64,000 bases of DNA, from contig CAZWWE010000003.1 in NCBI GenBank assembly GCA_964637295.1, positions 37,565 through 101,564 on the forward strand, read 5' to 3'. Under the pieces are notes generated by a model. That model saw only the letters and a program-made list of their open reading frames with translations. It was not told where the DNA came from and did not search any database. The position numbers and the translations under genes were made by a program. Each line of letters starts with the position of its first letter. Within the stretch, counting starts at the first letter, position 1. The DNA comes from an uncultured Pseudomonadales bacterium. GTDB taxonomy: Bacteria > Patescibacteriota > Microgenomatia > UBA1400 > PJMF01. This document shows positions 47,607-49,421 of this stretch, piece after piece.

Positions 47607-47680
47607 GTGCTGGTAGCTCAGCTGGATAGAGCAACTGCCTTCTAAGCAGTAGGTCGTGGGTCCGAATCCCACCCAGCATA
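47607..47680 (+). tRNA. tRNA-Arg (anticodon TCT)
   Basis: Acceptor GTGCTGG/CCAGCAT has a G-U at positions 1-72. D arm GCTC-AGCTGGATA-GAGC. Anticodon stem ACTGC/GCAGT with loop CTTCTAA. T arm GTGGG-TCCGAAT-CCCAC. Confidence 0.8.
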
Positions 47681-47708
47681 CTTTGTGTTTGGTTAAAATT
47701 AAAAAAAC

Positions 47709-47783
47709 GGTGCCTGTAGCTCAGTTGGTTAGAGCGCCACTCTGTGGAAGTGGAGGTCGCGGGTTCGAGTCTCGTCAGGCACC
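47709..47783 (+). tRNA. tRNA-His (anticodon GTG) with an encoded G-1
   Basis: Acceptor GTGCCTG/CAGGCAC. An extra 5' G pairs with discriminator C73, the His identity element. Anticodon stem CCACT/AGTGG with loop CTGTGGA. T loop TTCGAGT. Confidence 0.85.
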
Positions 47784-47811
47784 CATCTTATCAAAAAGGT
47801 GTTTTATTACA

Positions 47812-49248
47812 ATGCAAGAAAATCTTTTCGTAGGTCCTACAATTGGCAGAAGCACTGACAGCGATTTATTTAATCCAAGAGAAAGATGGGATGTGTTAAA
47901 TAATCACAGGCCTATTAACAATAATTTTTTTTCTCCTGGATGTCCAGTTCAATGCATTTATTGTAATCAGCAGGCTTTTGAAATGGATCCAATTTCTGGA
48001 GAAAAAGCAACTCCATACATATCACTAATGGTAGACGGAGGTATTTCTTTAAATACGCGTTTAATGTCTGGGACTCAGTTGACACATGAAATTGAGCCAA
48101 AAGAATTACTTGATGCTTTCAACAAATCTCCATTTTTTGATCCCGATGCTTCTTTATTAATTGAAAATTTTAACGATCCTGGAGTAAATTGGAAAAAAAC
48201 TCTTGATTTGCTTAAATTATTAAACGAGCAAAAACATGTTGGGCCAGTTATTATTTTAACAAAACTAGGAATTTCAGATGAATTTGCGGAAGAATTGGCT
48301 CAGTTAAAAGCCAATGGTTTAAAAATTATTTTTAGCATTACATATGCAAATTTGCCAAAAACTATAGAGCCAGTAGATTCAATTTACCGATTGCGAGCTC
48401 TAAAAAAAATTTATTCACTTAATATACCCACAATTGTTTCCATTAGGCCAATGATTAAAGGATTAAATGACGGTGCGGAGAATATAAAAAAAATATTGTC
48501 CGATATTAGTCCTTTTTCAGATGTGATTACCGTTGGGGGATTATTTGTGTATGATGGATTGACTCAGATTGTTTTTGAAAAAGCTGGATTTTCATTAGAT
48601 CCAGTTTATTTTCAAGACATTTATTCAATGGCAAAAATTTTGCCACCAGAAATTAAAGAACAATTTAGAAAACATGCAATCGAATTAAATGTAAAAGCAC
48701 CAATTATTGATCATTATAGTTGTTGTATAGCTCATATTTGTACCTTGCATTATAATTCGCCTCGATCAGACAGAATGGCTCGTTGGGCCAACGCAAGCGG
48801 CCATTCATTTTCAGATTGCTGTGAAAATTGTTTGCCAGAGCAAAAAGCACAATGCCTTAAGAAAAGCCAAGAAAAACCAGAAGATATCATTTTTTTAGCC
48901 AAAGAAGCTGCAAGAAAAATTGGTTATTCTAAACTTCAAATTGTTAAGTCCCCAAATATTTCAGGACTTTTACTTATTTTAAATGGTTCTTTAGCAATTA
49001 ATGAAATATTTTTTATTGAACAGCACTGCGGTTGGGATGTAAACAATGTTCCAGACTCAATCAGCTTGATTATTAAAGCCAAAGAAGTATTGGCTCAAGA
49101 ATTAAATATGCGCTATGAAGAAGTTGTCGAAGAAATTAATCTTAACGAAGCTTATGAATGGATAATTAAAGTGAAAAATGATTACAATAAAACTTTAATT
49201 CAAAAATTTTTGAGAGGTAAAATTAGATCTAGAATTTTAGTTGTTTAA
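47812..49248 (+). CDS. Radical SAM domain protein with a C-terminal Cys-rich region (function unknown)
   Basis: I trimmed the track ORF (47656) to the first ATG after the tRNAs, which has an AGGTG Shine-Dalgarno 11 nt upstream. The CxxxCxxC motif is GCPVQCIYC. A C-terminal cluster reads HYSCCIAHIC...FSDCCENCLPEQKAQC. The gene is noticeably more AT-rich than its flanks. Confidence 0.6.
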   Translation: MQENLFVGPTIGRSTDSDLFNPRERWDVLNNHRPINNNFFSPGCPVQCIYCNQQAFEMDPISGEKATPYISLMVDGGISLNTRLMSGTQLTHEIEPKELLDAFNKSPFFDPDASLLIENFNDPGVNWKKTLDLLKLLNEQKHVGPVIILTKLGISDEFAEELAQLKANGLKIIFSITYANLPKTIEPVDSIYRLRALKKIYSLNIPTIVSIRPMIKGLNDGAENIKKILSDISPFSDVITVGGLFVYDGLTQIVFEKAGFSLDPVYFQDIYSMAKILPPEIKEQFRKHAIELNVKAPIIDHYSCCIAHICTLHYNSPRSDRMARWANASGHSFSDCCENCLPEQKAQCLKKSQEKPEDIIFLAKEAARKIGYSKLQIVKSPNISGLLLILNGSLAINEIFFIEQHCGWDVNNVPDSISLIIKAKEVLAQELNMRYEEVVEEINLNEAYEWIIKVKNDYNKTLIQKFLRGKIRSRILVV

Positions 49249-49421
49249 TTGGTGAAAATTATTTGTTTGCCACCATGAAGGTGAATCTATTAATGTCAAT
49301 AGCAAGCAAGACTACGGTAGAATTACTGTGGCAAGAGGTTTTTAAATTATTAAGAGACAGAGCTACTAGTTTTTTTAACCACCAAACCCCCATTTTTTTG
49401 CAAAAATGCTAGAATGAAAAC

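Follow-up and report, generated by a model that had tools for sequence, protein, structure and literature searches.

Uncharacterised families are common among radical S-adenosylmethionine (SAM) enzymes. Some members of the superfamily have nucleotides as substrates, among them viperin, QueE and MoaA, and such enzymes have time and again proved to be biologically important. Prokaryotic viperins are reportedly associated with nucleotide kinases (Bernheim et al. 2021). The best curated matches of the gene described here are COG1533-type families, which are functionally uncharacterised themselves and are often annotated as 'DNA repair photolyase'. The gene lies in a 64,000-nucleotide (nt) stretch of DNA from an uncultured bacterium (GenBank assembly GCA_964637295.1, contig CAZWWE010000003.1, positions 37,565 to 101,564 of the forward strand), hereafter the window, and encodes a radical SAM protein of 478 amino acids (aa). 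In all likelihood it is an intact, horizontally acquired cargo gene in a hypervariable slot behind tRNA-His, and an orphan of an unnamed family. The neighbourhood is given below in window coordinates; in what follows, L-labels denote contigs or loci of the relatives compared, and P-labels denote individual relative proteins.

45369..47483, minus strand: uvrB, the conserved left flank, with Pfam UvrB_inter, UvrB, Helicase_C and UVR domains; sister orthologues are 83-98% identical.
47607..47681, plus strand: tRNA-Arg(TCT), found by ARAGORN and Rfam (tRNA, 69 bits).
47710..47784, plus strand: tRNA-His(GTG), found by ARAGORN and Rfam (tRNA, 66 bits); the variable segment starts at the 3' end of this gene.
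47786..50772, no strand: segment of about 3.0 kb, variable between strains and species, with the radical SAM gene and a PMT_2 gene, delimited by blastn and tblastx against sisters.
47812..49248, plus strand: radical SAM gene of an unnamed rare family, 478 aa, starting 27 nt beyond tRNA-His at the first ATG.
49249..49421, no strand: spacer with a strain-level breakpoint at 49262, from the comparison with L011.
49422..50771, plus strand: PMT_2-family membrane glycosyltransferase (Pfam PMT_2, 46.5 bits), the second gene of the variable segment.
50773..52017, minus strand: NTP_transferase/hexapeptide gene (Pfam), the conserved right flank of the hotspot.

The boundaries of the slot were set by comparison with sister genomes (UvrB 83-94% identical); the UvrB orthologues formed a graded series of 98, 94, 90, 88, 84 and 83% identity. 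Some UvrB relatives, including ones 62-83% identical, were labelled Candidatus Pacebacteria or Woesebacteria, and the host is therefore a Microgenomates-type candidate-phyla bacterium resembling these groups. The order uvrA-uvrB-tRNA-Arg(tct)-tRNA-His(gtg) was conserved in the sisters, and uvrB-tRNA-Arg-tRNA-His was found in L094, L096, L097, L098, L105 and L108. The far side was also syntenic in L096 and L097, with the genes for NTP-transferase, His_Phos_1, pyruvate kinase, flavodoxin and POR. In blastn, the DNA homology covered uvrB and reached 47785; against L094, L096, L097 and L105 it stopped at 47785/47786, which is the last base of tRNA-His. It resumed at 50837 (L096) or 50793 (L097), where the NTP-transferase gene (stop codon at 50773) has its 3' end. 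Between these points the radical SAM gene and the PMT_2 glycosyltransferase were the only open reading frames (ORFs) of the window. The same slot held three small ORFs in L097 and L098, five genes including an unrelated HemN-like radical SAM gene and a HAD hydrolase gene in L096, and a frameshifted ORF of unassigned family in L105 and L106. The five contents (window, L011, L096, L097/L098 and L105/L106) were mutually unrelated by tblastx. An earlier examination of the bare letters (the sequence-only reading) had proposed that a horizontally acquired cargo gene follows the tRNA pair, and the unrelated genes in the sister slots, together with a homology break exactly at the tRNA-His 3' end, support this.

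The closest comparison was with L011, a contig of the same species, which carries the tRNA genes and the radical SAM gene. It was 99.4% identical to window positions 47627-49262 (1636 nt) and unrelated to the window from 14 nt past the radical SAM stop codon. All nine nucleotide differences fell within the final 280 nt of the radical SAM reading frame (48972-49248), compared with none in the preceding 1345 nt, and four of the nine changed amino acids, all in the C-terminal domain. This cluster looks like the edge of a recombination tract; it is also consistent with relaxed constraint on the C-terminal domain. PMT_2 was missing from the slot in L011, L096 and L097. Since L011 has the radical SAM gene without PMT_2, the two cargo genes share no history. 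An exact look-up of the PMT_2 protein of the window returned no record. In addition, four contigs of closer relatives ended inside or just past the tRNA pair, which would fit population heterogeneity at this point. A metagenome scan with UvrB found best relatives only 55-57% identical, with uvrB free of adjoining tRNA or radical SAM genes, and was uninformative on presence or absence.

No direct repeat of the tRNA-His 3' end was found in the window, either with a 25-mer at up to 3 mismatches, a 12-mer at up to 2 mismatches or a general repeat finder, no integrase was found in the window, and no transposase in its variable segment. The locus is therefore, as far as its sequence tells, a hotspot islet with two independently varying cargo genes and not a classical island flanked by attachment (att) repeats. 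The small island suggested earlier thus stood in substance, although not in its att-flanked form and not as a single gene, as the segment also includes PMT_2 (49422-50771); the repeat of the tRNA-His 3' end that it had suggested looking for was not found.

Other variable features were seen around the slot. In L105 (positions 1-632; UvrB 90% identical), the frameshifted ORF ends a few bases from the tRNA-His 3' end. It begins with a YYHC...C motif, after which comes a long charged stretch resembling a coiled coil, recalling the zinc ribbon and coiled coil of large serine recombinases. A serine-recombinase reading of this ORF found no Pfam, PDB or plasmid support, and its sole homologue was an unannotated protein of 185 aa. 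A second variable spot lies between uvrB and uvrA, where the window has a gap of 7 nt (45361-45369) and the sisters have between one and three additional genes: ORFs of 250, 740 and 237 aa in L096 (10135-13870), an ORF of 254 aa in L097 (10179-10943), and an SdpI-like gene plus an HTH gene in L105 (3031-3920).

The base composition of the radical SAM gene was compared with that of the window, using the 43 ORFs of at least 150 aa. Its GC content was 0.319 against a window mean of 0.384 (standard deviation, sd, 0.024), and its GC content at third codon positions (GC3) was 0.209 against 0.330 (sd 0.038); both were the lowest of the 43 genes. When the protein's own amino-acid sequence was recoded with the codon usage of the window, a GC3 of 0.321 ± 0.020 was expected, so that the observed value had a z of -5.8. 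The 1-kb bin 48001-49000 (GC 0.322) was the lowest of 64. The compositional deviation is well beyond chance, and the visibly AT-rich character reported earlier held under the windowed GC and codon check. The homologues in L007-L010 had a GC content near that of their own loci, and the AT bias is therefore specific to the window copy. PMT_2 had a normal GC3 (z = +1.3) and a low codon-usage likelihood (z = -2.15).

A native, vertically inherited gene, AT-rich by chance or through an expression-related codon effect, is barely credible on these data. The gene is intact and keeps every family-invariant residue, and its codon-likelihood score in the window was not low, because AT-ending codons are the preferred ones of the genome; both observations would speak for it. 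Yet GC3 lies 5.8 sd under expectation, the slot lacks the gene in relatives with 83-90% identical UvrB, and the nearest homologues are only 39% identical and belong to other phyla. The findings that the sequence-only reading had itself set against acquisition did not appear: the gene deviates in composition, its synteny is not kept in the relatives, and orthology to RlmN or MiaB was not found.

The 478-aa frame directly after tRNA-Arg(TCT) and tRNA-His(GTG) was confirmed with ARAGORN, Rfam and the ATG at 47812, ending at 49248. The ORF list opens this frame at a GTG at 47656, which is an artefact, since that start falls inside the tRNA genes and the ATG at 47812 is the first after tRNA-His. 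The gene is probably co-transcribed with both tRNAs, which is weakly suggested by the stretch from tRNA-His to the ATG, as it spans 27 nt and holds no terminator-like site. No such site was found in the spacer 49249..49421 either. One promoter-like site was located on the 5' side of the tRNA pair.

47553..47581, plus strand: promoter-like site TGGACT-17-TATAAT, 10 of 12 consensus matches, 5' of tRNA-Arg; it could drive a single transcript of tRNA-Arg, tRNA-His and the radical SAM gene.

This site is a consensus match only, as the count of promoter-like sites in the region was not above that of shuffled sequences.

The protein itself has three recognisable parts, and their conservation was assessed over 28 family members.

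47941..47964, plus strand: codons of C44-x3-C48-x-Y50-C51, predicted ligands of the SAM-cleaving [4Fe-4S] cluster, invariant in the family members.
48721..48855, plus strand: codons of the second Cys motif, C304 to C348, invariant in the alignment and probably an auxiliary Fe-S or Zn site.
48874..49245, plus strand: family-specific C-terminal alpha/beta domain, residues ~355-478.

The motif GCPVQCIYC, noted from the letters as a CxxxCxYC signature, is present with Cys 44, 48 and 51 and matches the CxxxCxxC motif by which the Radical SAM superfamily ligates the SAM-binding [4Fe-4S] cluster; the window protein also has the radical SAM (beta/alpha) TIM-barrel fold, partial or full. Further Cys residues are at 304, 305, 310, 336, 337, 340, 348 and 406. 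The C-terminal pattern is CC-x4-C ... CC-x2-C-x7-C; the seven Cys described before are all there, although the last spacing is x7 and not x8, and one more Cys stands at 406. Among the downstream Cys, only C304, C336, C340 and C348 are invariant, together with Q344, giving the spacing C-x31-C-x3-C-x7-C. The other invariant residues were G43, C44, C48, Y50, C51, Q53, N81, N119, D122, T150, K151, Y178, E186, N219, G242, G243, G407, P414 and W450.

Searches of curated models placed the protein in no named family. The top NCBIfam match was PA0069 (NF033668) with 27 bits against a cutoff of 360, and only residues 126-231 aligned. At E <= 10, no match was obtained to PF20903 (spore photoproduct lyase, SPL) or to SPASM, twitch or Fer4 models (Pfam, NCBIfam). 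RlmN, MiaB, TYW1 and other curated RNA-modification radical SAM models did not match. Queuine lyase (QueL), a new radical SAM subgroup, was considered because tRNA-His, AspRS and guanylate-kinase genes occur as neighbours, but no NCBIfam model named QueL matched. In PADLOC-DB 2.0, no family reached E <= 1 for the window protein or for three plasmid-borne radical SAM proteins of the wider clade. PDB sequence and family-profile searches returned only low-complexity or repeat artefacts (ubiquitin, designed PPR proteins) and not 4fhc. To judge from these models, the window protein is outside every curated family.

An additional Cys-rich region past the radical SAM core is also what a maturase of ribosomally synthesised and post-translationally modified peptides (RiPPs) would have, with an auxiliary cluster as in SPASM/twitch enzymes, and in L004 a YcaO/nitroreductase/M16 peptidase cluster lies about 1.5 kb upstream. 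Such a maturase is nevertheless very improbable: SPASM and twitch models failed to match even at the permissive threshold above, the Cys spacing differs from the SPASM pattern, no small precursor-peptide-like ORF or RiPP partner is conserved across loci, and the YcaO cluster occurs at one locus only, with HD and NUDIX genes in between.

A SplB-type DNA-repair lyase working alongside UvrABC, which the sequence-only reading had considered, is improbable as well. SPL is not known to have a second Cys cluster. The resemblance to SplB/COG1533 held in that the nearest curated families, including PA0069 and Rv2578c, are COG1533-type, although below cutoff, and failed in that Pfam SPL was unmatched and the family profile did not recover SPL from PDB. 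One homologue carries the Joint Genome Institute name 'DNA repair photolyase', the window gene has uvrB upstream of it, and the L010 gene has uvrA upstream in divergent orientation; moreover, COG1533 SplB genes are reported to be SOS-regulated in several phyla (PMC8565304). Against this, eight of the ten family loci have no repair gene nearby, and the sisters keep uvrB-tRNA-Arg-tRNA-His without the radical SAM gene. The proximity to UvrABC is therefore positional and looks coincidental, and the functional fit with UvrABC proposed before was not upheld.

The distribution of the family was then surveyed. A word-indexed search of 5.8 billion proteins returned eight homologues, one from the same species and the others 33-39% identical. 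When 1.84 billion cluster representatives were searched exhaustively with a profile, 32 matched at E <= 1e-30, followed by a gap and about 370 weaker matches of 300-400 aa. A pattern scan of 185,579 species genomes, made with an eight-sequence alignment and two peptide patterns, found at least four loci: three in metagenome-assembled genomes (MAGs; one Acidobacteriaceae, one Patescibacteria and one labelled Gammaproteobacteria) and one in a Daviesbacteria genome. This number is a lower bound, because the scan relies on the two patterns. The family is thus represented in Patescibacteria, Acidobacteriota and the MAG labelled Gammaproteobacteria, and no members were found in viral contigs and phage records. 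Literature searches on COG1533 and on radical SAM enzymes in defence turned up no description of the family. As delimited by these searches, it comprises about 30 clusters at 50% identity and is unnamed and rare. Its architecture is distinctive, combining the radical SAM core with the four-Cys motif and a family-specific C-terminal domain.

The second motif reaches further than the family. C...CxxxCxxxQxxxC was kept, depending on the position, in 56-94 of 115 distant relatives, and so in almost every one with an alignment extending that far; it therefore marks a wider clade and not the window family alone. This clade (about 400 clusters) matched the PA0069, Rv2578c and 'mobile pair B' models weakly, and it is uncharacterised and remotely PA0069/COG1533-like. 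Its four-Cys radical SAM core was found fused to TIR_2 (P0144) and to MazG (P0060). Further fusions were seen with a class V aminotransferase/cysteine-desulfurase-like domain (P0087) and a family 2 glycosyltransferase (P0086). Twenty plasmids carried wider-clade relatives about 25% identical. The conserved operon in which these sit (L101-L104: NZ_CP107978.1, NZ_CP011928.1, NZ_CP144207.1 and NZ_CP054693.1) combined the radical SAM gene with genes for a 3'-5' exonuclease of the DEDDh type, a small P-loop protein resembling AAA_28 and a protein with an HD domain, and its neighbours were Shedu, HEPN/Toprim, PIN, toxin-antitoxin and transposase genes. The Streptomyces version had thymidylate synthase and nucleoside-diphosphate kinase (NDK) genes upstream. 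The plasmid P-loop partner aligned to the AAA_28 proteins of L003 and L007 (hhalign probability 80%, E = 1.4e-5). No PADLOC model matched the radical SAM or P-loop proteins of the operon, which looks like an undescribed candidate defence or nucleotide-modification module.

The gene neighbourhoods were surveyed at nine family loci besides the window (L001, L003, L004, L007, L008, L009, L010, L099 and L100). Guanylate-kinase-like genes occurred in L001, L009, L010 and L099 (52-84 bits against an equivalog cutoff of 160), AAA_28 genes in L003 and L007, and an adenylate kinase gene in L100. Mutually homologous MutT/NudI-like NUDIX genes immediately preceded the radical SAM gene in L004 and L008, with another gene in between in L009, and an HD (YfbR-like) gene was present in L004. 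L010 and L099 shared a conserved operon of radical SAM, His_Phos_1, unknown and isochorismatase genes. Taken together, the window gene is best read as encoding a mobile radical SAM enzyme whose substrate is a nucleotide or nucleic acid, an overall reading that the sequence evidence moderately favours. The substrate by itself is a more tentative matter: a nucleotide or nucleic acid is plausible without being probable, because the relatives adjoin P-loop kinase-like and (pyro)phosphatase genes, and because MazG fusions and exonuclease operons occur in the wider clade.

At L001 (7173-16182, in an 896-kb genome with P0005), the radical SAM gene and the guanylate-kinase-like gene lie between secretion/conjugation-like genes. 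Both flanks carry type IV secretion/conjugation-like genes (TrwB/DUF87-like, VirB4/TraG-like, TraC-like and PrgI), and tRNA-Lys and tRNA-Ala follow 650 nt downstream. This locus may be cargo of a conjugative element. No riboswitches were found around 13 family or clade loci and the window, where only tRNA, rRNA and group II intron fragments were detected.

Some of the same neighbourhoods also point to RNA. An enzyme modifying tRNA or rRNA, with a KH-like C-terminal domain that binds RNA and a core that methylates, thiolates or otherwise alters a base, is a minority candidate. The model of the C-terminal domain resembles RimP-N, NusA, RbfA, KhpB and CPSF-KH modules, all of them RNA binders, with a RimP match in addition. 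SAM methyltransferase genes lie near the gene in L003, L007 and L100, an RlmN/Cfr-like radical SAM gene directly downstream in L100, and class II synthetase genes of the aspartyl-tRNA synthetase (AspRS) type directly downstream in L003 and L007, while tRNA genes adjoin it in the window and in L001. However, none of the curated RNA-modification models (RlmN, MiaB, TYW1) matched, the integration hotspot accounts for the adjoining tRNAs in the window, and a rare, patchy distribution would be odd for a modifier of the translation apparatus.

Several observations weigh against a mobile, nucleotide-directed radical SAM enzyme. The protein scored 24.2 bits with Pfam Radical_SAM (PF04055) against a cutoff of 29.5 (E = 4.3e-5, profile 3-160 of 166); several of its relatives exceeded the gathering threshold. 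In the modelled structure, residues 1-70 with the cluster-binding loop had a predicted local distance difference test (pLDDT) score below 50, and metal binding by the four downstream Cys, probably as an auxiliary Fe-S cluster or structural Zn, is predicted. The usual partner genes are absent within the 64 kb around the window copy, whose only His_Phos_1 gene belongs to the conserved backbone; the context argument is therefore borrowed from relatives 33-39% identical. Only about five context types are independent, the guanylate-kinase-like and adenylate kinase partners may be chance housekeeping neighbours, and methyltransferases, an RlmN-like radical SAM enzyme, class II aminoacyl-tRNA synthetases and tRNAs point towards RNA. 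Finally, no integrase, att repeat or transposase that could account for the acquisition lies in the window segment.

If the nucleotide-directed enzyme is nevertheless accepted, a mechanism can be outlined. The N-terminal [4Fe-4S] cluster would cleave SAM to yield the 5'-deoxyadenosyl radical, C304, C336, C340 and C348 would hold the auxiliary Fe-S cluster or zinc, and the family-specific, KH-like C-terminal alpha/beta domain would dock or position the substrate. At other loci the kinase and hydrolase partners would set the phosphate state of the substrate or product, and the window gene would work solo, riding on the tRNA transcript. The nearby flavodoxin and pyruvate:flavodoxin oxidoreductase would be plausible electron donors. 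Both genes, flavodoxin at 54496-54960 (minus strand) and pyruvate:flavodoxin/ferredoxin oxidoreductase at 55033-56802 (plus strand), belong to the conserved backbone, 5-7 kb from the radical SAM gene.

A bolder reading, which we regard as quite doubtful, is that the four-Cys clade, with the window family in it, forms a class of radical SAM enzymes, so far unrecognised, that modify nucleotides. In concert with a dedicated P-loop kinase and an NTP pyrophosphatase or phosphatase (NUDIX, MazG, HD or His_Phos), these would make or destroy a modified nucleotide, for example an antiviral chain terminator or a signalling nucleotide, as a viperin-like defence evolved independently. The module would travel on mobile DNA and plasmids and would have been acquired here, in a defence-type hotspot, by a host-dependent candidate-phyla bacterium.

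Elsewhere in the window, the 16S rRNA match covered only 1349 nt (25092-26440, minus strand), although it spans the whole model (positions 1-1533). A match to a group II intron fragment, D1-D4 (24725-24804), and an ORF of 179 aa (24269-24808) lie between the 16S gene and tRNA-Ile (23583-23657). The region 23583-26440 (minus strand) may represent an rRNA operon that is shortened or interrupted, as has been reported for candidate-phyla bacteria.

A tRNA-His-anchored slot with five contents in close relatives informs the study of gene exchange in reduced Microgenomates-type genomes without recognisable integrases. Furthermore, the motif, the reproducible partners (P-loop kinase-like proteins and nucleotide hydrolases) and the MazG and TIR fusions turn 'function unknown' into a testable hypothesis; if the function proves ordinary, the locus remains a neat case of single-gene acquisition.

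Compared with known tRNA-gene-associated islands, the locus is alike in that the variable DNA starts at a tRNA 3' end, is absent or replaced in relatives and deviates in composition. It differs in lacking an integrase, an att repeat and a flanking mobility gene, and in its size of 3 kb and two genes. Among curated proteins, the best matches for the window protein and the wider clade are the COG1533 families PA0069, Rv2578c and 'mobile pair protein B' (NCBIfam NF033668, NF038135 and TIGR04470). Common to them and the window protein are the GCxxxCxYC spelling and the central part of the radical SAM barrel (residues ~126-231 align), but the scores are 12-48 bits against cutoffs of 360-430, and the window family has an additional alpha/beta domain of about 125 aa at its C-terminus. 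SplB (PDB 4fhc; PF20903) differs from the window protein, which has no SPL match and whose family context is nucleotide metabolism and not sporulation or repair; in structure, its score was no better than that of unrelated radical SAM enzymes. Prokaryotic viperins (pVips) serve as a working analogy only: in both cases a radical SAM gene stands beside nucleotide kinase genes in variable or mobile regions, and relatives in the wider clade occur in defence-island-like plasmid neighbourhoods and in a fusion with TIR.

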